From: Shigella phage SH7
DNA length: 64,000 bases
Direction: 5' to 3' (one strand)
Sequence record: KX828711
Position numbers and translations under genes: made by a program. Positions within the stretch are counted from its first letter, which is position 1. Each line of letters starts with the position of its first letter. Below are positions 49,778 to 63,374 of the stretch, piece after piece. Below the pieces are notes generated by a model. The model searched no databases. It saw only the letters and a program-made list of their open reading frames with translations, and was not told the DNA's origin.

Positions 49778-49821
49778 AGTATAAATACTTATTATTGAAA
49801 ACACAATAGGAGCCCGGGAGA

Positions 49822-52800
49822 ATGGCCGAGATTAAAAGAAAGTTCAGAGCAGAAGATGGTCTGGACGCAGGTGGCGATAAAATAATCAACGTAGCTTTAG
49901 CTGATCGTGCCGTAGGAACTGACGGTGTTAACGTTGATTACCTAATTCAAGAAAACACAGTTCAACAATACGATCCAACTCGTGGATATTTAAAAGATTT
50001 TGTAATCATTTATGATAACCGTTTTTGGGCTGCTATAAATGATATTCCAAAACCAGCGGGAGCTTTTAATAGCGTACGCTGGAGAGCATTACGTACTGAT
50101 GCTAATTGGACAACTGTTTCATCAGGACCTTATCAATTAAAGTCAGGTGAATCAATTTCAGTTAATACTGCAGCAGGAAATGATATCACATTTACTTTGC
50201 CAACTTCTCCAATTGATGGAGATACTATCGTTCTTCAAGATATTGGTGGAAAACCCGGAGTTAACCAAGTTTTAATTGTAGCTCCAGTGCAAAGTATTGT
50301 AAACTTTAGAGGCGAACAAGTACGATCAGTACTAATGACCCATCCAAAATCACAGATAGTTTTAATTTTTAGTAATCGTCTGTGGCAAATGTATGTGGCT
50401 GATTATAGCAGAGAAGCGGTAGTTGTGACGCCAGCAAGTCTCTACCAGGCGCAGTCAAACGATTTTATCGTGCGCAGATTTACTTCTGCTGCACCGATAA
50501 ATATTAAACTTCCGAGATTTGCTAATCATGGCGATATTATTAATTTCGTTGATTTAGATAAATTAAATCCTCTTTATCATACAATTGTTACTACATATGA
50601 TGAAACTACATCAGTACAAGAAGATGGAACTCATTCCATTGAAGGCCGTACATCTATTGATGGTTTCTTGATGTATGATGATAATGAGAAATTATGGAGA
50701 TTATTTGACGGGGATAGTAAAGCACGTTTACGTGTTATAACAACTAATTCTAATATTCGTCCAAACGAAGAAGTTATGGTATTTGGTGCGAATAATGGAA
50801 CAACTCAAACAATTGAACTTCAGCTTCCGACCGATATTTCCATTGGCGATACTGTTAAAATTTCCATGAATTACATGAGAAAAGGCCAAACAGTTAAAAT
50901 CAAAGCTGCCGGTGAAGATAAAATTGCTTCTTCAGTTCAATTGCTGCAATTCCCAAAACGTTCAGAATATCCGCCTGAGGCTGAATGGGTGACTGTTCAA
51001 GAATTAGTTTTTAACGGTGAAACTAATTATGTTCCAGTTTTACAACTTGCTTATATAGAAGATTCTGACGGAAAATACTGGGTTGTACAGCAAAACGTTC
51101 CAACAGTTGAAAGAGTCGATTCTTTAAATAATTCTACTAGAGCAAGATTAGGCGTAATTGCTTTAGCTACACAAGCTCAAGCTAACGTCGATTTAGAAAA
51201 TTCTCCACAAAAAGAATTAGCAATTACCCCAGAAACATTAGCTAACCGTACTGCTACAGAAACTCGTAGAGGTATCGCAAGAATAGCAACTACCGCCCAA
51301 GTGAATCAGGATACTACATTCTCTTTTGCTGACGATATTATCATCACTCCTAAAAAGCTGAATGAAAGAACTGCTACAGAAACTCGTAGAGGTGTTGCTG
51401 AAATTGCTACGCAACAAGAAACTAATACAGGTACTGATGATACTACGATCATCACTCCTAAAAAGCTTCAAGCTCGTCAGGGTTCTGAATCATTATCTGG
51501 TATTGTAACTTTTGTATCTACTGCAGGTGCTACTCCAGCTTCTAGCCGTGAATTAAATGGTACGAATGTTTATAATAAAAACACTAATAATTTAGTTGTT
51601 TCACCTAAAGCTTTGGATCAGTATAAAGCTACTCCAACACAACAAGGTGCGGTAATTTTAGCAGTTGAAAGTGAAGTAATTGCTGGACAAAGTCAGGAAG
51701 GATGGGCAAATGCGGTTGTAACACCAGAAACGTTACATAAAAAGACATCAACTGATGGAAGAATTGGTTTAATTGAAATTGCTACGCAAAGTGAAGTTAA
51801 TACAGGAACTGATTATACCCGTGCAGTCACTCCTAAAACTTTAAATGACCGTAGAGCAACTGAAAGTTTAAGTGGTATAGCTGAAATTGCTACACAGGTT
51901 GAATTCGACGCAGGCGTCGACGATACTCGTATCTCTACACCATTAAAAATTAAAACCAGATTTAATAGTACTGATCGTACTTCTGTTGTTGCTCTATCTG
52001 GATTAGTTGAATCAGGAACTCTCTGGGACCATTATACCCTTAATATTCTTGAAGCAAATGAGACACAGCGTGGTACACTTCGTGTAGCTACACAGGTCGA
52101 AGCTGCTGCAGGAACATTAGATAATGTTTTAATAACTCCTAAAAAGCTTTTAGGTACTAAATCTACTGAAGCACAGGAAGGTGTTATTAAAGTTGCAACT
52201 CAGTCTGAAACTGTGACTGGAACATCAGCAAATACTGCTGTATCTCCAAAAAATTTAAAATGGATTGTGCAGAGCGAACCTACCTGGGCAGCTACTACTG
52301 CGATAAGGGGATTTGTTAAAACTTCATCTGGTTCAATTACGTTCGTTGGTAATGATACAGTCGGTTCTACTCAAGATTTAGAACTGTATGAGAAAAATAG
52401 CTATGCAGTATCACCATATGAATTAAACCGTGTATTAGCAAATTATTTGCCATTAAAAGCAAAAGCTGTAGATAGTAATTTATTGGATGGTCTAGATTCA
52501 TCTCAGTTCATTCGTAGGGATATTGCGCAGACAGTTAATGGTTCACTAACCTTAACCCAACAAACGAATCTGAGTGCCCCTCTTGTATCATCTAGTACTG
52601 CTACGTTTGGTGGTTCAGTTTCGGCAAATAGTACATTGTCTATTTCTAACACTGGAACGACTTCTTCTCGATTTACATTTGAGAAAGGTCCTGCTTCTGG
52701 TAGTAATGCTGATTCTGCATTGCATGTTCGTGTATGGGGTAATAAGTACAGCGGCGGTTCTGATGTAACTCGCGCAACGATTATAGAATTCTATGATGCT

Positions 52801-53694
52801 TCCGGCACTCATTTCTATTCTCAAAGAGATACGTCAAATAATGTGTTGTTCAACATTTCAGGTACGATGCAATCAGTCCATGCTAGCGTTCGTGGTGTTC
52901 TGAACGTTACAGGTGTCTCAACGTTTAATAGTTCAGTTACAGCCAATGGTGAATTCATTAGCAAGTCTGCAAATGCATTTAGAGCAATTAGTGGTGATTA
53001 TGGATTCTTTATCAGGAATGATGGTGGCAGCACATATTTTATGCTTACTGCATCAGGCGATCAGACTGGCGGATTTAATGGATTACGTCCTTTAGCTATT
53101 AATAATGCATCCGGTCAAGTAACGATTGGTGAAAGCTTAATCATTGCCAAAGGTGCTACTATAAATTCAGATGGTTTGACTGTTAACTCGAGAATTCGTT
53201 CTCAAGGTGTTAAAACATCTGACTTATATACCCGTGCGCCAACATCTGATACTGTAGGATTCTGGTCAATCGATATTAATGATTCAGCCACTTATAACCA
53301 GTTCCCGGGTTATTTTGAAATGGTTGAAAAAACTAATGAAGTGACTGGGCTTCCATACTTAGAACGTGGCGAAGAGGTTAAATCTCCTGGTACATTGACT
53401 CAGTTTGGTAACACACTCGATTCACTTTACCAAGATTGGATTACTTATCCAACGACTCCAGAAGCACGTACCACTCGCTGGACGCGTACATGGCAGAAAA
53501 CCAAAAACTCTTGGTCAAGTTTTGTTCAGGTATTTGATGGAGGTAACCCTCCTCAGCCATCTGATATCGGTGCTTTACCATCTGATAATGCTATAATGGG
53601 GAATCTTACTATTCGTGATTTCTTACGAATTGGTAATGTTCGCATTATTCCTGACCCAGTGAATAAAACGGTTAAATTTGAATGGGTTGAATAA
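49822..53694 (+). CDS. 34: long tail fibre proximal subunit gp34
   Basis: 1290 aa; tandem peptide repeats (ITPKKL...ATETRRG...IAT). Confidence 0.93.
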   Translation: MAEIKRKFRAEDGLDAGGDKIINVALADRAVGTDGVNVDYLIQENTVQQYDPTRGYLKDFVIIYDNRFWAAINDIPKPAGAFNSVRWRALRTDANWTTVSSGPYQLKSGESISVNTAAGNDITFTLPTSPIDGDTIVLQDIGGKPGVNQVLIVAPVQSIVNFRGEQVRSVLMTHPKSQIVLIFSNRLWQMYVADYSREAVVVTPASLYQAQSNDFIVRRFTSAAPINIKLPRFANHGDIINFVDLDKLNPLYHTIVTTYDETTSVQEDGTHSIEGRTSIDGFLMYDDNEKLWRLFDGDSKARLRVITTNSNIRPNEEVMVFGANNGTTQTIELQLPTDISIGDTVKISMNYMRKGQTVKIKAAGEDKIASSVQLLQFPKRSEYPPEAEWVTVQELVFNGETNYVPVLQLAYIEDSDGKYWVVQQNVPTVERVDSLNNSTRARLGVIALATQAQANVDLENSPQKELAITPETLANRTATETRRGIARIATTAQVNQDTTFSFADDIIITPKKLNERTATETRRGVAEIATQQETNTGTDDTTIITPKKLQARQGSESLSGIVTFVSTAGATPASSRELNGTNVYNKNTNNLVVSPKALDQYKATPTQQGAVILAVESEVIAGQSQEGWANAVVTPETLHKKTSTDGRIGLIEIATQSEVNTGTDYTRAVTPKTLNDRRATESLSGIAEIATQVEFDAGVDDTRISTPLKIKTRFNSTDRTSVVALSGLVESGTLWDHYTLNILEANETQRGTLRVATQVEAAAGTLDNVLITPKKLLGTKSTEAQEGVIKVATQSETVTGTSANTAVSPKNLKWIVQSEPTWAATTAIRGFVKTSSGSITFVGNDTVGSTQDLELYEKNSYAVSPYELNRVLANYLPLKAKAVDSNLLDGLDSSQFIRRDIAQTVNGSLTLTQQTNLSAPLVSSSTATFGGSVSANSTLSISNTGTTSSRFTFEKGPASGSNADSALHVRVWGNKYSGGSDVTRATIIEFYDASGTHFYSQRDTSNNVLFNISGTMQSVHASVRGVLNVTGVSTFNSSVTANGEFISKSANAFRAISGDYGFFIRNDGGSTYFMLTASGDQTGGFNGLRPLAINNASGQVTIGESLIIAKGATINSDGLTVNSRIRSQGVKTSDLYTRAPTSDTVGFWSIDINDSATYNQFPGYFEMVEKTNEVTGLPYLERGEEVKSPGTLTQFGNTLDSLYQDWITYPTTPEARTTRWTRTWQKTKNSWSSFVQVFDGGNPPQPSDIGALPSDNAIMGNLTIRDFLRIGNVRIIPDPVNKTVKFEWVE

Positions 53695-53702
53695 GAGGTA
53701 TT

Positions 53703-54818
53703 ATGGAAAAATTTATGGCAGAGTTTGGACAAGGATATGTCCAAACGCCATTTTTATCGGAAAGTAATTCAGTAAGATATAAAATAAGTATAGCGGGTTC
53801 TTGCCCGCTTTCTACAGCAGGACCATATGTTAAATTTCAGGATAATCTTGTCGGAAGTCAAACATTTAGCGCAGGTCTTCATTTAAGAGTTTTTGACCCT
53901 TTCACTGGAGCATTAGTTGATAGTAAGTCATATGCTTTTTCGACTTCAAATGATACTACATCAGCTGCTTTTGTTAGTTTCATGAATTCTTTTTCAAACA
54001 ATAGACTTGTTGCTATATTAACTAGCGGAAAGGTTAATTTTCCTCCTGAAGTAGTATCTTGGTTAAGAGCAGCAGGAACATCTGCTTTTCCATCTGATTC
54101 TTTATTGTCAAGATTTGACGTATCATATGCTGCCTTTTACACTTCTTCTAAAAGAGCTATCGCACTAGAGCATGTTAAACTGAGTAACAGAAAAAGCACA
54201 GATGACTATCAAACTATATTAGATGTAGTATTTGATAGTTTAGAAGATGTTGGAGCGACAGGATTTCCTAAAAGAACATATGAAAGCGTTGAGCAATTTA
54301 TGTCAGCAGTCGGTGGAACTAATAACGAAATTGCACGTCTACCTACAGCATCTGCAATAAGTAAACTTTCTGACTATAATTTAATTCCTGGAGATGTTCT
54401 TTATCTTAAAGCACAACTATATGCTGATGCTGATTTATTAGCGTTGGGAACTACTAATATTTCAATTCGTTTTTATAATGCGTCGAATGGATATATTTCC
54501 TCGACACAAGCTGAGTTTACCGGACAAGCTGGGTCTTGGGAATTAAAAGAAGATTATGTAGTTGTTCCAGAAAATGCAGTTGGATTTACGATATACGCAC
54601 AGAGAACTGCACAAGCGGGTCAAGGCGGTATGAGAAATTTAAGCTTTTCTGAAGTGTCAAGAAATGGTGGCATTTCAAAACCTGCTGAGTTTGGCGTCAA
54701 TGGTATTCGAGTTAATTATATCTGTGAATCTGCTTCACCTCCGGATATAATGGTACTTCCTACGCAAGCATCGTCTAAAACTGGTAAAGTGTTTGGACAG
54801 GAATTTAGAGAAGTTTAA
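53703..54818 (+). CDS. 35: long tail fibre hinge protein gp35
   Basis: 371 aa; position. Confidence 0.88.
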   Translation: MEKFMAEFGQGYVQTPFLSESNSVRYKISIAGSCPLSTAGPYVKFQDNLVGSQTFSAGLHLRVFDPFTGALVDSKSYAFSTSNDTTSAAFVSFMNSFSNNRLVAILTSGKVNFPPEVVSWLRAAGTSAFPSDSLLSRFDVSYAAFYTSSKRAIALEHVKLSNRKSTDDYQTILDVVFDSLEDVGATGFPKRTYESVEQFMSAVGGTNNEIARLPTASAISKLSDYNLIPGDVLYLKAQLYADADLLALGTTNISIRFYNASNGYISSTQAEFTGQAGSWELKEDYVVVPENAVGFTIYAQRTAQAGQGGMRNLSFSEVSRNGGISKPAEFGVNGIRVNYICESASPPDIMVLPTQASSKTGKVFGQEFREV

Positions 54819-54823
54819 ATTGA

Positions 54824-54841
54824 GGGAGCCTTCGGGTTCCC
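54824..54841 (+). terminator. hairpin (gggagcc-UUCG-gggttcc) plus T-run after gene 35
   Basis: Stem with G-U pairs, followed by ctttttcttt. Confidence 0.65.
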
Positions 54842-54849
54842 TTTTTCTT

Positions 54850-54857
54850 TATAAATA
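54850..54857 (+). promoter_or_regulatory. late promoter TATAAATA for genes 36-37-38
   Basis: Exact TATAAATA about 24 nt upstream of gene 36 ATG. Confidence 0.6.
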
Positions 54858-54880
54858 CTATTAAAATAAAGGGGCATACA

Positions 54881-55537
54881 ATGGCTGATTTAAAAGTAGG
54901 TTCAACAACTGGAGGCTCTGTCATTTGGCATCAAGGAAATTTTCCATTGAATCCAGCCGGTGACGATGTACTCTATAAATCATTTAAAATATATTCAGAA
55001 TATAATAAACCACAAGCTGCTGATAACGATTTCGTTTCTAAAGCTAATGGTGGTACATATTTAAATAAAGTAATTTTTAATAAAGGAATGACTGTTCCTG
55101 GTGCTGGGTCAGGTGACAACGGTATTTTTGCCGGTCCTGGTGATAATGCTACATATGATACTACAAATATGGATATTGTTTCATGGTATGGTATCGGCTT
55201 TAAATCATCACAAGGGGCAGCAGGTAGAACTGTAGTAATTAACACACGAAACGGAGATATTAGCTCAAAGGGTGTAATTGAAGCATCACAAATACGCGCA
55301 ACTTCGTTATCACCAGTAAATAATTATGACCTTACGAGAAAAGATTATGTTGATGGAGCAATAAATATTGTTACAACAAATGCAAACTCTAGAGTATTAC
55401 GCTCTGGAGACACTATGACAGGAAATTTAACTGCGCCAAACCTTTTTTCACAGAATCCTGCATCTCAACCCTCGCATGTTCCGCGATTTGACCAAATCGT
55501 AATTAAGGATTCTGTTCAAGATTTCGGCTATTATTAA
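54881..55537 (+). CDS. 36: long tail fibre distal connector gp36
   Basis: 218 aa; position. Confidence 0.88.
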   Translation: MADLKVGSTTGGSVIWHQGNFPLNPAGDDVLYKSFKIYSEYNKPQAADNDFVSKANGGTYLNKVIFNKGMTVPGAGSGDNGIFAGPGDNATYDTTNMDIVSWYGIGFKSSQGAAGRTVVINTRNGDISSKGVIEASQIRATSLSPVNNYDLTRKDYVDGAINIVTTNANSRVLRSGDTMTGNLTAPNLFSQNPASQPSHVPRFDQIVIKDSVQDFGYY

Positions 55538-55545
55538 GAGGACTT

Positions 55546-58500
55546 ATGGCTACTTTAAAACAAATACAATTTAAAAGAAGCAAAACGGCAGGTCAACGTC
55601 CAGCTGCTTCAGTATTAGCCGAAGGTGAATTGGCTATAAACTTAAAAGATCGTGTACTTTTTACTAAAGATGATCAAGGAAATATTATTGACTTAGGTTT
55701 TGCTAAAGGCGGTAGTATTGACGGGAATGTTATTCATAAAGGCAATTATAACCAAACTGGCGATTATACTTTAAACGGTACATTCACCCAGACTGGTAAT
55801 TTTAATTTAACCGGTATTGCTCGAGTAACTCGTGATATTATTGCTGCTGGGCAGATTATGACTGAAGGCGGAGAACTTATTACAAAAAGTTCAGGAACGG
55901 CACACGTTCGTTTTCATGATTCCGCCGACCGTGAACGCGGTATTATTTTTTCTCCTGCTAATGACGGTTTAACTACACAGGTAGTTAACATCAGAGTTCA
56001 AGATTACAAAGCTGGTTCAGAAAGCACTTTCGCTTTTAATGGAAATGGTTTGTTTTCTTCACCAGAAGTTTTTGGGTGGAAATCTGTATCAACTCCGGTA
56101 ATTTATACCAATAAAGTTATCACCAATAAAAAAGTTAAAGATGATTATGACATCTATTCGACGGCAGACAATGTTCCATTGTCTGAAAGCACTACTGCTA
56201 TTAATCATCTTCGTGTTATGCGTAATGCAGTTGGTTCTGGTATTTTCCATGAAGTTAAAGATAATGATGGAATAACATGGTATAGTGGAGATGGATTAGA
56301 CGTTTATCTTTGGTCATTTACTTGGAGCGGCGGAATTAAATCAAGTCACTCAATTTCCATCGGTTTAACACCCGGACCTAAGGATTACTCAATATTAGGA
56401 CCGTCTAGTATCGCTTTAGGAGATAATGATACTGGATTTAAATGGCATCAAGACGGATATTATTTCAGTGTTAACAATGGCACAAAAACGTTTTTATTTA
56501 GTCCCAGCGAAACAACTAGCCTAAGAAAATTTGTAGCTGGATATTCTACTAACGGAACCGATTTAACTACTCCTCCAACTGAAAATTATGCTCTTGCTAC
56601 TGTAGTGACATACCATGATAATAACGCGTTTGGGGATGGTCAGACTCTTTTAGGATATTATCAAGGCGGTAACTATCATCACTATTTCCGCGGTAAAGGT
56701 ACCACAAACATTAATACTCACGGTGGTTTGTTAGTTACTCCTGGTAATATTGATGTTATTGGCGGTTCTGTTAATATCGATGGTAGAAATAATGCTTCTA
56801 CAGCGATGTTTAAAGGTAACACAACAGGTAGTAGTTCTGTGGATAACATGACAATTTCCGTTTGGGGCAATACGTTTACTAATCCTAGTGTAGGTAATCG
56901 TAAAAACGTCATGGAAATTTCTGATGCAACTAGCTGGATGAGTTATATTCAAAGACTTACAACAGGTGAAGTAGAAATGAACGTTAACGGTTCATTTGAA
57001 TCATCTGGTGTTACTGCTGGAAATAGAGGAGTTCACACAACGGGCGAAATTTCATCTGGGGCTGTGAATGCGCTTCGTATTTGGAACGCAGATTATGGAG
57101 CTATTTTTAGACGTTCAGAAGGCAGTCTTCATATTATTCCAACTGCTTACGGTGAAGGTAAATATGGCGATATCGGTCCACTTCGCCCGTTTAGTATGGC
57201 TTTAGATACCGGTAAAGTTACTATTCCAGATTTACAATCAAGTTACAATACGTTTGCTGCTAACGGTTATATTAAATTTGTTGGTCATGGAGCGGGTGCC
57301 GGCGGTTATGACATTCAATATGCTCAAGCGGCTCCTATTTTCCAGGAAATTGATGATGATGCTGTAAGCAAATATTATCCTATTGTTAAACAGAAGTTTT
57401 TAAATGGTAAAGCTGTTTGGTCTTTAGGTACTGAAATTAGTTCAGGTACATTCGTTATTCATCATCTGAAAGAAGATGGTTCACAAGGCCATACGTCTCG
57501 TTTTAATCAAGACGGTACTGTTAACTTCCCAGATAACGTTTCTGTCGGCGGCGGTGAAGCTACTATTGCTCGCAATGGTAATATCTGGTCTGATATCTGG
57601 AAAACGTTTACTTCAGCAGGCGACGTAACTAATATTCGCGATGCAATAGCTACTCGTGTTGCTAAAGAAGGTGATACGATGACCGGTAGGTTGACTTTAT
57701 CTGCTGGAAATGATGCCCTTGTTTTAACTGCAGGCGCGGGTGCTTCATCGCACATCCGTAGTGATGTAGGTGGTACAGGTAACTGGTATATAGGCAAAGG
57801 CGGCGGCGACAATGGTCTAAGTTTTTACAGTTACATTACACAAGCCGGTGTGAACATAACAAATAACGGCGAAATAGCGCTTTCTCCTCAAGGACAAGGA
57901 GCGTTTAATTTTAATAGAGACCGCCTTCATATAAACGGTACACAATGGGTTGCGCATAAATCTGGCGCCTTTGGTGACCAATGGAGTTTAGAAGCTCCGA
58001 TATTTATAGATTTTGGTAGTGTCAGTAATGACTGCTATTATCCTATTATTAAAGGAAAATCTGCTATTACTAATGAAGGATACATATCTGGTGTTGATTT
58101 TGGTATGCGTCGTATCACTAATAACTGGGCGCAAGGTATTATTCGTGTAGGTAACCAGGAAAACGGTTCTGACCCACAAGCTGTATATGAATTTCACCAT
58201 AACGGAACTCTGTATGTTCCTAACATGGTTAAAACTGGAGCAAGATTATCAGCTGGCGGCGGCGACCCGGTGTGGACTGGGCCATGTCTTGTTATTGGTG
58301 ATAATGATACTGGTTTAGTCCATGGCGGTGATGGCCGAATCAATATGGTTGCCAATGGTGTTCATATTGCTTCATGGTCATCTGCTTATCATCTCCATGA
58401 AGGTCTTTGGGATACTACTGGTGCTTTGTGGACTGAGCAAGGAAGAGCTATTATTTCTTTTGGTCATTTAATCCAACAGAGTGATGCCTATTCTACATTT

Positions 58501-58857
58501 GTCCGTGATGTTTATGTCCGTTCTGATATTCGCGTTAAAAAAGACCTCGTTAAATTTGAAAATGCTTCTCAGAAGCTTTCTAAAATTAACGGTTACACTT
58601 ATATGCAGAAGCGAGGCCTGGATGAGGAAGGTAATCAGAAATGGGAACCTAACGCTGGTTTAATTGCTCAAGAAGTTCAAGCTATTTTACCAGAATTAGT
58701 TGAAGGCGACCCTGATGGTGAAGCTTTACTTCGTTTGAACTATAACGGTGTAATTGGTTTAAATACAGCTGCAATCAATGAGCATACTGCAGAAATTGCG
58801 GAACTTAAATCAGAAATTGAAGAACTTAAAGCATTAGTTAAATCATTGTTAAAATAA
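55546..58857 (+). CDS. 37: long tail fibre distal subunit gp37 with C-terminal intramolecular-chaperone-like domain
   Basis: 1103 aa; C-terminal SDIRVKKDL...[15 protein letters not shown]...coiled coil. Confidence 0.9.
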
Positions 58858-58862
58858 TAAGA

Positions 58863-58876
58863 GGGGCTTCGGCCCC
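58863..58876 (+). promoter_or_regulatory. hairpin (ggggc-UUCG-gcccc) abutting gene 38 Shine-Dalgarno
   Basis: Hairpin followed directly by ttGGAGG and ATG 58889. Confidence 0.5.
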
Positions 58877-58888
58877 TTGGAGGTTTAT

Positions 58889-59683
58889 ATGGCAGTAACA
58901 GGACCGTGGGTAGGATCGTCTGCAGTAGTTAATACAGGACAAAATTGGATGGGCGGCGCGGCCCAACGATTAAGAATGGGTGCTCCATTTTGGATGAGTA
59001 ATATGATAGGTCGATCTGTTGAAATAATTCACACGCTTGGAGCAGACCATAACTTCAATGGTCAATGGTTCCGAGATAGATGTTTTGAGGCAGGTAGTGC
59101 ACCTATAGTGTTTAATATCACCGGAAATTTGGTATCATATTCCAGAGACGTTCCTTTATTCTTCATGTACGGAGATACACCTAATGAATATGTTCAATTA
59201 AATATTGGTGCTGGAGCTCATATGTGGGGTAGAGGTGGACAAGGTGGATGGACTCATTCTGGTGGAGATGGTAATGGTCAACAGGGTGGACATTGTATTC
59301 AAAATGACATTGGTGGTCGATTAAGAATTAATAACGGCGGAGTAATTTGTGGCGGTGGTGGCGGTGGTGGCGGTATCGCTTATCGTCCTCACTCTGGTGC
59401 AAACTGGCAGGATATTGGTGGCGGTGGAGGAAGACCATTTGGCCCAGGAGGTGGCGGTGGTTATTCAGGAGGTGCTGCTTCTTATGACGGCCCAGGAGGT
59501 GGTTATAATTATGGTAATGCTCATTCTGGCCAGGGCGGTGATGCTGGCGCAAATGGACAAAATGCCTGGCATGATGGCGGTAAAGTACTAAAAGTCGGTG
59601 CTGGCGGGGCCGCAGGTTATGCTGTCATAGGGTCTGCTCCAACATGGCAAAATGTTGGAATAATATATGGTCCAAGAGTATAA
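58889..59683 (+). CDS. 38: gp38 receptor-recognising adhesin, T2-type with glycine-rich motifs
   Basis: Start MAVTGPW; several poly-Gly blocks ([18 protein letters not shown]) separating variable segments. Confidence 0.85.
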
Positions 59684-59713
59684 TTTGAATAAATATCCTT
59701 AAAAGGAGGGTCT

Positions 59714-60370
59714 ATGGCAGCACCTAGAATATCATTTTCGCCCTCTGATATTCTGTTTGGTGTTCTAGATCGCTTGTTCAAAGATAACGCTACCGGGAAA
59801 GTTCTTGCTTCCAGGGTAGCTGTCGTAATTCTTTTGTTTATAATGGCGATTGTTTGGTATAGGGGAGATAGTTTCTTTGAGTACTATAAGCAATCAAAGT
59901 ATGAAACATACAGTGAAATTATTGAAAAGGAAAGAAATGCACGCTTTGAATCTGTCGCCCTGGAACAACTCCAGATAGTTCATATATCATCTGAGGCAGA
60001 CTTTAGTGCGGTGTATTCTTTCCGCCCTAAAAACTTAAACTATTTTGTTGATATTATAGCATATGAAGGAAAATTACCTTCAACAATAAGTGAAAAATCA
60101 CTTGGAGGATATCCTGTTGATAAAACTATGGATGAATATGCAGTTCATTTAAATGGACGTCATTATTATTCCAACTCAAAATTTGCTTTTTTACCAACTA
60201 AAAAGCCTACTCCCGAAATAAATTACATGTACAGTTGTCCATATTTTAATTTGGATAATATCTATGCTGGAACAATAACTATGTACTGGTATAGAAATGA
60301 TCATATAAGTAATGACCGCCTTGAATCAATATGTGCTCAGGCGGCCAGAATATTAGGAAGGGCTAAATAA
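59714..60370 (+). CDS. t: holin T
   Basis: 218 aa; single N-terminal TM segment VAVVILLFIMAIVWY; large periplasmic domain. Confidence 0.93.
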   Translation: MAAPRISFSPSDILFGVLDRLFKDNATGKVLASRVAVVILLFIMAIVWYRGDSFFEYYKQSKYETYSEIIEKERNARFESVALEQLQIVHISSEADFSAVYSFRPKNLNYFVDIIAYEGKLPSTISEKSLGGYPVDKTMDEYAVHLNGRHYYSNSKFAFLPTKKPTPEINYMYSCPYFNLDNIYAGTITMYWYRNDHISNDRLESICAQAARILGRAK

Positions 60371-60643
60371 TTATTTGTTTGTATACATCTCTAGATATCG
60401 ATATACACCCTCAAAACCCTCGTTGAATTCGTCGATGAGGGTTTTCTTATCTTCTTGAGTTAATTCAGAAACAATTTTACGGAATGAATTCTGATTTAAT
60501 TTTCTACCTTCATGCGTTACTCCAATCTCATTCAGAAATGCAATAAAATTAGCACGATTTTCAACAATATCTTCTCTGGAAAATTTAATTAAAATAGACG
60601 CAACAGTAATAATTTCACGAACTGTATCAATATTTTTATTCAT
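60371..60643 (-). CDS. asiA: AsiA anti-sigma70 factor
   Basis: 90 aa; MNKNIDTVREIITVASILIKFSREDIV. Confidence 0.95.
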   Translation of the reverse strand: MNKNIDTVREIITVASILIKFSREDIVENRANFIAFLNEIGVTHEGRKLNQNSFRKIVSELTQEDKKTLIDEFNEGFEGVYRYLEMYTNK

Positions 60644-60655
60644 TAACTATACCAC

Positions 60656-60808
60656 TCAATTAGTTGACTTTGTTATAATATCATCAGACGCTTGATTTGT
60701 AAACTGGTCTGTGTTATTTTCTTCAAAAATTTTTTCTACGAATTCCTTGAACGACTCGCGTTCCTGAGCTACATTATGCTCGATTACTTTTTCAAGATTA
60801 TGACTCAT
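60656..60808 (-). CDS. small acidic protein, 50 aa (below track threshold; asiA.1 position)
   Basis: ATGA overlap with arn stop; MSHNLEKVIEHNVAQERE... Confidence 0.45.
   Translation of the reverse strand: MSHNLEKVIEHNVAQERESFKEFVEKIFEENNTDQFTNQASDDIITKSTN
60675..60704 (-). promoter_or_regulatory. early promoter for asiA (GTTTAC -35, TATTAT -10)
   Basis: Minus strand GTTTAC, 18 nt spacer, TATTAT; about 30 nt upstream of asiA ATG. Confidence 0.5.
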
Positions 60809-61083
60809 TCGAAATAATCTTCAATTTCATAATCATGGACATAAATCATTATAGTTTTTAATACATCATCAATACTTTTTCCTGGAGCTGGAATTACGTA
60901 AAAATATCCTGCTTTTGAGAGGTCTTTATAAGTTCCAATCAAGAAATCATTATTCTCAAGATGCAGTTCTTCAACTAATTCATTAACAATTGAGTGGTAT
61001 AAATTTGGTAAAAACTTATATAGCTTTTCTAGAATATCAATTTTGATTGTGTATTGAACCACAGACTGAGAATCAATAATCAT
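60805..61083 (-). CDS. arn: Arn anti-restriction (McrBC inhibitor) protein
   Basis: 92 aa acidic protein; position after asiA. Confidence 0.75.
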   Translation of the reverse strand: MIIDSQSVVQYTIKIDILEKLYKFLPNLYHSIVNELVEELHLENNDFLIGTYKDLSKAGYFYVIPAPGKSIDDVLKTIMIYVHDYEIEDYFE

Positions 61084-61166
61084 AGACCTTCCCCTTATGT
61101 TTCTGTTTGCGATTAGATTCTTTAAACGCTTTCTTCTTATCCTTATGGACAGAAGCTTTATTAAAA

Positions 61167-61385
61167 TTATGTTTTGCGACTAAATTGTTCATAGTGCTGA
61201 ATTACCTCTCTCAAACATTTGCATGTGAATGAAAACTTTTTAGCTACACCACATTCAAATATATGTTCTCTTAAATCACGTGTGTCAGTATATCCCATCT
61301 CAACAATAAAATGTCGTATTAAATTTTTATCTTTATCATTGAGAGAATTAAAATAATCGGATTTTGAATTAATTTCCCTGGCCAA
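61167..61385 (-). CDS. hypothetical protein
   Basis: 72 aa ORF. Confidence 0.5.
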   Translation of the reverse strand: MAREINSKSDYFNSLNDKDKNLIRHFIVEMGYTDTRDLREHIFECGVAKKFSFTCKCLREVIQHYEQFSRKT

Positions 61386-61665
61386 ATTGAATCACCTTCA
61401 GTTGACGTTTTAGCTCTTTTATCATTTCTTCGTTCATCGCAATATAAAGATCGCGTAAAGCAGGTTTTAGCATTCCATTTATTGGGGAACTAAATGGACA
61501 TACATAATCTTTTCCTACGAGCTTTTTAGTGAATTCAATATTACAGAACTGAAATGCCGGCTCATTGGTATAAATTCCCCAATTAGTTGACATCATTTTA
61601 TTGGCATATTCCAGTGCCTGGATTTGATTCATAATTCCATCAATTTGAAACTGTTTAATATTCAT
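61369..61665 (-). CDS. hypothetical protein
   Basis: 98 aa ORF. Confidence 0.5.
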   Translation of the reverse strand: MNIKQFQIDGIMNQIQALEYANKMMSTNWGIYTNEPAFQFCNIEFTKKLVGKDYVCPFSSPINGMLKPALRDLYIAMNEEMIKELKRQLKVIQFGQGN

Positions 61666-62126
61666 TAGTAAAGGTCCTCAGAGTAAAGTTCTTTTTCACT
61701 ACCACCACGTTCAATACGTACTTGTCCAGCGTAAGTTGCAATAATCATTGCTTCTTCACGTGTCCAATAATTACTGTATTGGTCAATAAACCCTTGGTCA
61801 TCATCACAAACTTGTTGAGTAACTAATTGAGGTTTAACTACATCTAAAACTTCTGCCATATCTTTAGAATAATGACGAGCACCTGGAATAATAAGAGTTC
61901 GTCCATCTTTTAATTTAAAACGGTTGGCTGCGCAAACAATTCGTCGTTGATACTTTTGATTTTCGTCCCAATATGCAGACTGCCAACAGATTTCAGGAAC
62001 TTCTTTCAGAATATCTTCTTCTGTGCATTTATAACCATGTGCTTTAAATTTTTCAACAAGACTTTCTGGAGTTTCACGAGATAAAGGCACATTCAGCATT
62101 TTTAAACGATTAATAAATGGGTTCAT
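61665..62126 (-). CDS. hypothetical protein
   Basis: 153 aa ORF. Confidence 0.5.
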
Positions 62127-62452
62127 TTAAACCATCCTTTAATACGCTGCCACAAAGTTTTCTGTTGAGCTTTGTTAACACCAATTGAGCGAATAACTGG
62201 TTGAGATTCCTGGAATTCTTTATAATCAGCAAGGTAAATTTCGTAAGCTGCATCCGTAAATGAACTTATCGCCGCCATAAAATTATTGCGAATACCTACT
62301 GGAGCATCTTTACTTTCACGAATAATCATGTATTTACCAGTCTTAATCTTTACGATAGTTCCAAGATAAGCTCCATGATACCAGATGTCCCACCCCTCTT
62401 GAGTGGGTTCTGCACAACGACGAAGTTCATTGACAATTTCTAACTTGTTCAT
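62123..62452 (-). CDS. hypothetical protein
   Basis: 109 aa ORF. Confidence 0.5.
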
Positions 62453-62462
62453 TATTTATTCC

Positions 62463-63098
62463 TCACAGTTCAGATGCTACAGTGATTACAGCTTCAATGT
62501 TTTCTGCCGAGCGTTTAATGTCAAGATACACATTACCGTTTTTAGCGATTTTACATGACATTCCGATATCAGTAAATTTCTGAATATGATGTTCCATCAT
62601 TTTGTATCCAAAAATTCGCATATTTCCATTGTTGTTAATTTCAAAATTACGAATTCCGTGAGTGCGTTTTTCTAAAATAGCGAGATAATTACTACGATAA
62701 GTTTCAACCTTTTTAAGAACAAATCCATTTTCATCTAAAAGTTTTAACATGAGGTCTTTATCTTCTTCCATATCGGAAGTAATCTCGCGAGCTTTACGAG
62801 TTGCTCGTTTTTTCAGCAGTTCCGGAGCATTTTCCTGTGCATATAAAGTTGCTGCATTTGAAATAATATCCTGAGCTTCACCAGTAATGATTAATCCATC
62901 ACCAGATTTCTCCACCAGGCCTTTTTTAATCAATACCCCAATATTACTATTAACTACTGCGTTACCTAAATCTGGATGCACCTCACGAACTTCTGCAGCT
63001 GTAATGAAATCTTTCTTAGCAATGGTAATTAAAATCGTAGCAGTTTTTTCATTCAGAACATCGTTAGAAGCTTTGATGATGTAAGTTACTTTAGACAT
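62463..63098 (-). CDS. motA: MotA middle-transcription activator
   Basis: 211 aa (T4 MotA length); N-terminus MSKVTYIIKASNDVLNEKTATILITIAKK. Confidence 0.95.
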   Translation of the reverse strand: MSKVTYIIKASNDVLNEKTATILITIAKKDFITAAEVREVHPDLGNAVVNSNIGVLIKKGLVEKSGDGLIITGEAQDIISNAATLYAQENAPELLKKRATRKAREITSDMEEDKDLMLKLLDENGFVLKKVETYRSNYLAILEKRTHGIRNFEINNNGNMRIFGYKMMEHHIQKFTDIGMSCKIAKNGNVYLDIKRSAENIEAVITVASEL

Positions 63099-63130
63099 TT
63101 TCTAATCTCCGTAATTCTGTATCAGTAGTT

Positions 63131-63219
63131 GATAGTTGTATAGTACCACAGTATGCTTTGGTTGTAAACCGTTTTGTGAAAAAATTTTTGAAATAAAAAG
63201 GGAGAGCCAAGGCTCTCCC
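63131..63219 (-). promoter_or_regulatory. terminator hairpin plus early promoter cassette upstream of motA (copy 2)
   Basis: gggagagcc-aa-ggctctccc hairpin 63200-63219; GTTTAC, 17 nt spacer, TACTAT. Confidence 0.55.
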
Positions 63220-63224
63220 TAAAA

Positions 63225-63374
63225 TTACTGCATGACTGTGATAACTGTCATGATAACACGTTGAATTCCGAATGCAAGAAGACCTCCTGCTACGGCTGGA
63301 ACAACACCTAAACCCGCCAGTAAAATGCTACCAGATACTAATGCAGTGCTTGTAATACCTATGAATGGACTCAT
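63225..63374 (-). CDS. small hydrophobic membrane protein, 49 aa (below track threshold)
   Basis: ATGA overlap with gene 52 stop; MSPFIGITSTALVSGSILLAGLGVVPAVAGGLLAFGIQRVIMTVITVMQ. Confidence 0.45.
   Translation of the reverse strand: MSPFIGITSTALVSGSILLAGLGVVPAVAGGLLAFGIQRVIMTVITVMQ

Follow-up and report, generated by a model that had tools for sequence, protein, structure and literature searches.

[quoted passage not shown] The question is raised by the gene directly downstream of g37, since T4 has an assembly chaperone at this genomic position and T2-type phages have an adhesin. We addressed it in a window of 64,000 nucleotides of SH7 DNA (record KX828711), the whole stretch that was analysed, and all positions below are positions in this window. 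The sequence-only reading had proposed a T2-type gp37/gp38 adhesin module that likely determines host range. On the evidence assembled here, 55546-59683 very probably specifies the distal end of a long tail fibre of the T2 type, made up of a gp37 predicted to cleave itself and a gp38 adhesin. Gene structures, protein families, the catalytic motif, the predicted fold, hypervariability, allele identity and mosaic junctions were computed directly, while gp37 cleavage, the stoichiometry of gp38 docking and the receptor were deduced from homologues.

The module itself is already known. In a protein search, gp38 proved 100% identical to an NCBI entry, ‘tail fiber adhesin [Shigella phage SH7]’, and the published SH7 coordinates equal window positions plus 96000 (proximal fibre, 145822-149694 for 49822-53694; hinge connector, 150881-151537 for 54881-55537); the window is almost certainly SH7 bases 96001-160000. 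Hamdi et al. annotated the two genes in 2017 as ORF241, which is gp37 and 95% identical to that of AR1, and ORF242, a ‘likely tail fiber adhesin’ that is 95% identical to wV7 and lacks homology to T4 gp38 (PMC5238451). They credited the infectivity of SH7 towards O157 to the AR1-like gp37 (PMC5238451). Their paper names neither a receptor nor the chaperone domain of gp37 (PMC5238451), and we add both here, the receptor as a prediction. The module carries little weight as a discovery, since two crystal structures exist for the adhesin family and experiments have repeatedly mapped the rules of its specificity.

Arrangement of the locus and the start of gene 38

The tail fibre genes are of the T-even type (Table 1), and the list of open reading frames gives products of 1290 residues for g34, 371 for g35 and 218 for g36. 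g37 ends at 58857 and g38 begins at 58889, so that the adhesin gene follows immediately after a g37 whose product has a chaperone domain at its C-terminus.

Table 1. Features of the SH7 fibre tip locus, in window positions
Feature	Position	Strand	Details
Long-tail-fibre genes, T-even type	49822-60370	+	g34, g35, g36, g37, g38, then holin t
T4 late-promoter consensus TATAAATA	54850..54857	+	Exact motif, upstream of g36
Gene 37, long tail fibre distal subunit	55546..58857	+	1103 aa, 118.8 kDa precursor
gp37 distal tip, residues 914-992	58285..58521	+	Ends DVYVR; aligns with crystallised S16 gp37 tip 6f45_A
gp37 putative intramolecular chaperone/autoprotease domain, residues 993-1103	58522..58854	+	12.3 kDa; PF13884; terminal helix
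Intergenic g37-g38 hairpin, UUCG tetraloop	58861..58878	+	GAGGGGC-UUCG-GCCCCUU, directly 5' of the g38 ribosome-binding site
Gene 38, receptor-recognising adhesin	58889..59683	+	264 aa, 26.7 kDa
gp38 N-terminal attachment domain, residues 1-40	58889..59008	+	Pfam Gp38_N; W7, W20, W35
gp38 linker and beta-helix domain, residues 41-112	59009..59224	+	Aligns with beta-helix of 9v85 and 6f45_D
gp38 polyglycine (PGII) sandwich and receptor-binding loops, residues 113-247	59225..59629	+	
gp38 predicted distal loops			A 120-128 (GWTHSGGDG), B 163-176, C 189-193, D 206-213 (YNYGNAHS), E 226-237
gp38 conserved C-terminus, returning to beta-helix	59630..59680	+	Kept in every T2-type adhesin aligned

The length of 264 residues first read for gp38 agrees with the frame that opens with the ATG at 58889 and whose stop codon ends at 59683. 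The start first given for this locus, 58863, had to be corrected: it lies 26 nucleotides too far upstream, inside the intergenic hairpin, and the real start of g38 is the ATG. A Shine-Dalgarno sequence, GGAGG at 58879-58883, forms the ribosome-binding site 5 bases 5' of this codon. The TTG at 58877, which is the start of the mechanically called open reading frame, was rejected because the homologues all begin with MAV(T/E/V)G at the ATG and because the Shine-Dalgarno sequence sits between the TTG and the ATG.

The hairpin between the two genes folds with -16.2 kcal/mol (z = -2.1), and it is conserved, with changes in the stem, in F1, KIT03, FL08, AV119, AR1, T2, T6 and RB32. Besides the exact late-promoter motif upstream of g36, a second match to TATAAATA is found at 49780, just 5' of g34; there is none directly before g37 or g38, and none between g36 and g38. 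By analogy with T4, the motif at 54850 is the probable start of a late transcript covering g36, g37 and g38, and these three genes are probably co-transcribed, given that the motif precedes g36 and is absent at g37 and g38. A scan for sigma-70 promoters gave a background level of 46 sites, with 40.6 expected, and the Rfam scan at gathering thresholds and the tRNA scan returned zero matches over the whole 64-kb window.

gp38 has the family, fold and variability of a T2-type adhesin

The family assignment of gp38 covers the whole protein. Residues 45-264 match Pfam GP38 (PF05268) from profile position 1 to 218 of 218, with E 5e-68 and 229.6 bits against a cut-off of 25, and residues 1-40 match Gp38_N (PF21721) with E 1.6e-21 and 76.4 bits. 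Together with Peptidase_S74 in gp37, these matches all exceed the gathering cut-offs of their models, and with E-values of 5e-68 (GP38), 1.6e-21 (Gp38_N) and 2.3e-12 (Peptidase_S74) the glycine, adhesin and chaperone features cannot be put down to chance. gp38 also matches PHROG 2056, ‘tail fiber protein; host specificity’, at E 2.5e-110, the receptor-binding domain of PP01 gp38 (PDB 9v85) at E 2e-72 and S16 gp38 (PDB 6f45_D) at E 2.5e-52. No result speaks against this family.

We built an AlphaFold2 model of the gp38 monomer from 51 homologues (pLDDT 86.9, pTM 0.80). A Foldseek search of the PDB with this predicted structure returned only 9v85 (TM 0.86) and 6f45_D (TM 0.83), the next match having E > 3, and the predicted fold is the beta-helix plus polyglycine-II sandwich of those two entries. 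The N-terminal 40 residues, the attachment domain, reach a pLDDT of only 41-64 in the monomer model, as expected for a domain that would fold against gp37. Within this domain, W7 and W20 reach a conservation of at least 90% in the 51 homologues and W35 is present in 13 of the 13 gp38 sequences aligned; in the S16 structure, three gp38 tryptophans plug into gp37 (PMC6851490). Residues 41-112 are modelled with short beta strands and pLDDT > 90, and their mean entropy of 0.66 bits is lower than that of any other part of the protein.

gp38 contains 15 runs of at least two glycines, among them eight glycines at residues 155-162 and five each at 177-181 and 187-191. Of residues 113-247, 39% are glycine. 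Across 95 homologues, column entropy is about 0 bits in the glycine motifs and rises to 1.5-2.4 bits, the highest values in the protein, in five loops. These loops, A to E, were placed by way of AR1 gp38, used as a proxy for PP01 with the same length of 259 residues, onto the loops of the PP01 crystal structure (PMC12892980). The representative of the Bp7 cluster, which has an aberrant C-terminus, was left out of the gp38 alignments. The hypervariable segments of gp38 set receptor specificity in the phages studied (PMC3157838, PMC12032242, PMC12892980, bioRxiv 10.64898/2026.04.02.716166). The sequence-only reading thus described gp38 well. Its poly-glycine blocks with non-glycine segments between them are there, its assignment to the T2-like adhesins is upheld by both Pfam families, by the two PDB entries and by a predicted fold that matches those entries alone, and the segments between the almost invariant glycine motifs are the most variable of the protein, their role as specificity determinants being borne out by the same literature.

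A glycine-rich reading frame could in principle be a compositional artefact or a pseudogene, a view that might appeal to the low-complexity glycine runs and to the open reading frames of 74-80 residues that overlap g38 in other frames. We regard this as practically negligible, since the sequence is intact and matches curated families and two crystal structures over its full length, and in view of the identical protein in an independent assembly, the strong and correctly spaced Shine-Dalgarno sequence and the conservation at codon level over 95 homologues.

gp37 ends in a putative self-cleaving chaperone

gp37 matches PHROG 1699 with E = 0 and contains a Pfam Gp34_trimer-like domain at residues 450-550. 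Residues 993-1052 of the 1103 match Peptidase_S74 (PF13884, ‘chaperone of endosialidase’) with E 2.3e-12 and 47.5 bits, against a cut-off of 22. Aligned to the S16 structure of tip plus chaperone (6f45_A), the last 190 residues give E 1e-42 and the chaperone domain by itself E 2.7e-34. The 1103-residue gp37 with an intramolecular-chaperone segment at its C-terminus was therefore read correctly from the start: the segment SDIRVKKDL begins at residue 993, in the Peptidase_S74 domain and within the S16 alignment. In this segment, S993-D-I-R-V-K998 has the Ser-x4-Lys spacing of a catalytic dyad and aligns with S-D-R-R-I-K of S16; the codons of the predicted dyad are at 58522-58524 (Ser993) and 58537-58539 (Lys998). 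SDIRVK also shows a weak match (E 0.021) to ADLRAK in the auto-processing domain of the myelin regulatory factor MYRF (7dc3).

The last 113 residues of S16 gp37 are removed by auto-cleavage at DLNVS^SDRRIKK (PMC7917993). Judged by its alignment to that site, SH7 gp37 should be cleaved at DVYVR^SDIRVKK, and the predicted products are a mature fibre of 992 residues and 106.5 kDa and a fragment of 111 residues and 12.3 kDa. The two phages share a chaperone with the S-D-x-x-x-K motif, and autocleavage, established for S16, is likely to extend to SH7. By analogy with the S16 structure, residues 914-992 of gp37 are predicted to be the surface on which gp38 docks after cleavage (PMC6851490, PMC7917993).

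The Peptidase_S74 domain is also present in gp37 of T2, T6, AR1 and RB32, whereas Pfam finds none in gp37 of T4, which has a receptor-binding tip of its own. This difference bears on whether gp38 of SH7 might instead be an assembly chaperone of the T4 type that stays outside the virion and leaves receptor recognition to the C-terminus of gp37. The gene does have the name of T4 g38 and its position between g37 and t, and several database records call homologues ‘distal long tail fiber assembly catalyst’. The position is, however, all that the T4 chaperone shares with SH7 gp38. BLASTP against the 183-residue T4 protein gave a best E of 0.77 over 20 residues, T4 gp38 has no Pfam match at all while SH7 gp38 matches the adhesin models, and the Collar and fibre-repeat tip found in T4 gp37 are missing from SH7 gp37, where the Peptidase_S74 chaperone domain stands in their place. 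Furthermore, a note in the T4 record calls the gp38 of the T2 subfamily unrelated. The statement of the sequence-only reading that T4 has a short chaperone gp38 instead was accurate, the T4 protein being annotated as a tail fibre assembly protein; the alignment it had named as able to overturn the adhesin assignment shows no similarity. We therefore consider a T4-type chaperone highly improbable and gp38 of SH7 an adhesin.

T2 itself has the gene order, the Pfam domains of both proteins and the intergenic UUCG hairpin seen in SH7. Its gp38 is just 44% identical overall to that of SH7, its gp37 is 1341 residues long and its receptor is FadL/OmpF. The crystallised S16 gp37-gp38 complex (PDB 6F45) has the same three-domain gp38, with three tryptophans and a ten-helix PGII sandwich. 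S16 gp38 is about 45% identical to SH7 gp38, and its loops differ. The receptor of S16 is Salmonella OmpC.

A model for the assembly of the fibre tip

Reasoning from S16 and T2, we propose that gp37 would be made as a 1103-residue precursor, with its last 111 residues acting as an intramolecular chaperone to make the beta-helical fibre trimerise. This domain would then remove itself by autoproteolysis between Arg992 and Ser993, catalysed by Ser993 and Lys998, and cleavage would leave exposed a flat, trimeric tip with DVYVR at its end. A single gp38 monomer, again as in S16 and T2, may dock on this tip by the three-helix attachment domain at its N-terminus, with Trp7, Trp20 and Trp35 entering three equivalent pockets of gp37. 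Among the rows covered of the SH7 virion-protein table (PMC5238451), gp38 does not appear. The rest of gp38 would consist of the beta-helix and a three-layered lattice of polyglycine-II helices formed from the conserved glycine motifs, and the five distal loops, which are the hypervariable segments, would contact a beta-barrel protein in the outer membrane of the host.

The SH7 module is a mosaic

In the SH7 module, the fibre and the attachment domain resemble those of AR1, and the binding domain is RB32-like. We mapped the junctions by nucleotide identity in 60-nucleotide windows against other phages. Starting in the 3' part of g37, SH7 is 87-100% identical to AR1 as far as about 59190 (about residue 100 of gp38), and identity then falls to about 50%; past this point, RB32, KIT03 and F1 remain 83-98% identical to SH7. 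This puts a recombination junction between SH7 and AR1 near 59190. RB32 is unrelated to SH7 (27-63%) before about 59010, the end of the gp38 attachment domain. Among the best nucleotide matches in the phage collection, which lacks SH7 itself, g37 reaches 93.3% identity to AR1 g37 and g38 at best 95.2%.

At the protein level, the SH7 attachment domain is 98-100% identical to that of AR1, F1 and FL08, 80-82% to KIT03, wV7 and AV119, and 57% to RB32. It is of the AR1 type in SH7, whereas RB32 has the T6 type and KIT03, wV7 and AV119 have a third. The subtype of the gp37 tip, of which SWGTMYQSHPGLWDSNGAFW is one, pairs with the N-terminal subtype of gp38, of which MAVEGPWVGWSARVQTGDPW is one, in 6 of 6 phages. 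Trojet et al. described a lock-and-key pairing of gp37 and gp38, together with shuffling at glycine motifs (PMC3157838).

PP01/AR1 gp38 (PDB 9V85), which is specific for OmpC, has the same fold as SH7 gp38 and a nearly identical gp37 partner. AR1 and SH7 gp38 are 98% identical in the attachment domain and 92% in the beta-helix, but just 46% in the loop region, and for this reason a receptor other than that of AR1 and PP01 is expected for SH7. The binding loops of SH7 gp38 come from the RB32/wV7 lineage. The published attribution of O157 infectivity to gp37 (PMC5238451) is probably misplaced, because the AR1-like part of the module comprises only the shaft and the docking module. SH7 provides a clean example of the shuffling of three modules (fibre tip with attachment domain, beta-helix, and loops) that phage engineers make use of.

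OmpA is the probable receptor

Since the gp38 loop region of SH7 is the ‘type 1’ allele of RB32, wV7 and FL08, OmpA is the most likely receptor, and on this comparison of sequences (Table 2) we predict that SH7 probably binds it. This gives a testable receptor call for a polyvalent phage.

Table 2. Identity to SH7 gp38 over residues 113-247 and receptors of the phages compared
Phage	Identity	Receptor
RB32	99%	OmpA (PMC3157838)
wV7, KIT03, F1	99% each	
AV119	96%	OmpA; plating lost on ompA deletion (PMC12032242)
FL08	95%	OmpA; plating lost on ompA deletion (PMC12032242)
FL15	51%	Tsx
T6	50%	Tsx
M1	47%	OmpA, type 2
AR1 (PP01-like)	46%	OmpC
FL18	45%	OmpA, type 2
T2	42%	FadL/OmpF

The type-1 OmpA adhesins of RB32, wV7, KIT03, F1, FL08 and AV119 (Trojet 2011, Lutz 2025) have the architecture and the length of SH7 gp38, are 95-99% identical to it in the polyglycine region, and share with it a loop A insertion of five residues (GWTHS) and the loop B sequence IAYR(P/V)HSGA. 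SH7 gp38 differs from them at a few single positions, namely I46, A108, A110, N172 and I258. The OmpA call rests on this group, because the type-2 OmpA adhesins of M1 and FL18 are just 45-47% identical to SH7 in the loop region. Receptors of wV7, KIT03 and F1 were absent from the literature searched, the search for KIT03 giving no usable result, and the classical OmpA phages K3 and Ox2, as well as LHE83, which is OmpA-specific and Bp7-like, were left out of the comparison. FL08 and AV119 infect hosts with all eight of the OmpA variants tested (PMC12032242).

The contacts of type-1 adhesins with OmpA have been predicted in silico as R165-A170, R181, D217 and R262 in FL08 numbering (PMC12032242), and the equivalents in SH7 gp38 are R166, H168, S169, G170, A171, R182, D218 and R263. 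The contact position V166 of FL08 is P167 in SH7, as it is in RB32, wV7, KIT03 and F1. At residue 172 in loop B, SH7 has N, as do FL08 and AV119, and RB32, wV7 and F1 have K. P167 and N172 occur together in SH7 and also in KIT03.

The adhesin could also be genuine and its receptor a different one, whether OmpC, Tsx, OmpF, FadL, or another or additional protein reached through the SH7-specific substitutions. SH7 infects E. coli O157:H7, as do the OmpC-dependent AR1 and PP01 (PMC5238451), and both gp37 and residues 1-100 of gp38 are AR1-like; porin specificity can be switched by single loop substitutions (bioRxiv 10.64898/2026.04.02.716166), and loop B of SH7 contains P167 and N172, positions at which relatives proven to use OmpA carry V or K. 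Specificity maps, however, to the hypervariable C-terminal half of gp38 and not to the attachment domain or gp37 (PMC3157838, bioRxiv 10.64898/2026.04.02.716166). In that half, identity of the loop region is no more than 46% with AR1, 50% with T6 and 42% with T2, as against 95-99% with three OmpA-dependent phages. Furthermore, P167 is common to RB32, and N172 to the OmpA-dependent FL08 and AV119. We judge a receptor other than OmpA to be unlikely, and OmpA remains our prediction.

Three considerations lowered our estimate for OmpA: a single loop substitution switches a gp38 between OmpF and OmpW (bioRxiv 10.64898/2026.04.02.716166), RB32 needs OmpA but is sensitive to LPS composition too (PMC3157838), and P167 is paired with N172 in SH7. 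It is conceivable, if distinctly doubtful, that the changes in SH7 (N172 on the P167 background, and A108 and A110 at the base of the sandwich) widen or alter recognition by gp38 beyond OmpA of E. coli, for example to OmpA variants of Shigella and Salmonella Paratyphi or to a second porin. If they do, it would be gp38, and not the AR1-like gp37 as published, that gives SH7 a host range unusual in crossing genera.

Receptor-binding module and host range

The infection of E. coli O157:H7 by SH7 has been ascribed to its AR1-like gp37, encoded at 55546-58857 (PMC5238451). The receptor-binding loops of SH7 are, however, located in gp38 rather than in gp37, and these loops are of the OmpA type found in RB32 and FL08, unlike the OmpC type of AR1 and PP01. 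The g37-g38 region is a mosaic with sharp junctions in 58222-59713, where SH7 resembles AR1 until ~59190 and RB32, KIT03 and F1 thereafter, and where the similarity of RB32 to SH7 begins only past ~59010. Among six phages, the subtype of the gp37 tip and that of the N-terminal part of gp38 vary together.

A nearly identical copy of this region is found in a bacterial whole-genome assembly (GCA_900013605.1), whose 5.8 kb contig FACG01000110.1 corresponds to 57495-63295 and differs from it only by two internal mismatches and at the contig end. The culture or library behind this assembly contained a near-identical phage.

Elements flanking the tail fibre genes

The g37 stop codon is directly followed by a second TAA, and a stable hairpin separates g37 from g38 (see table). 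This hairpin is conserved, its stem preserved despite sequence changes: it reads AGAGGGC-UUCG-GCCCUCU in T2 and GGGGC-UUU-GCCCC in both T6 and RB32. Since there is no T-run 3' of this hairpin on the + strand, its role is probably in mRNA stability or translation and not in termination. Another UUCG hairpin, this one with a T-run, lies 3' of g35 (54822-54843). The T4 late-promoter consensus, TATAAATA, occurs upstream of g36 and g34 and is absent upstream of both g37 and g38.

Hairpin and late-promoter matches near the tail fibre genes
Feature	Position	Location
Stable UUCG-tetraloop hairpin	58861-58878	between g37 stop and g38 ribosome-binding site
TATAAATA	54850-54857	after the g35 hairpin, immediately upstream of g36
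TATAAATA, further copy	49780-49787	immediately upstream of g34

Residues 58-123 of the hinge protein gp35 (g35, 53703-54818) match the Pfam model ILEI (interleukin-like EMT inducer) marginally, scoring 30.7 bits where the cut-off is 27 (E 4.4e-07).
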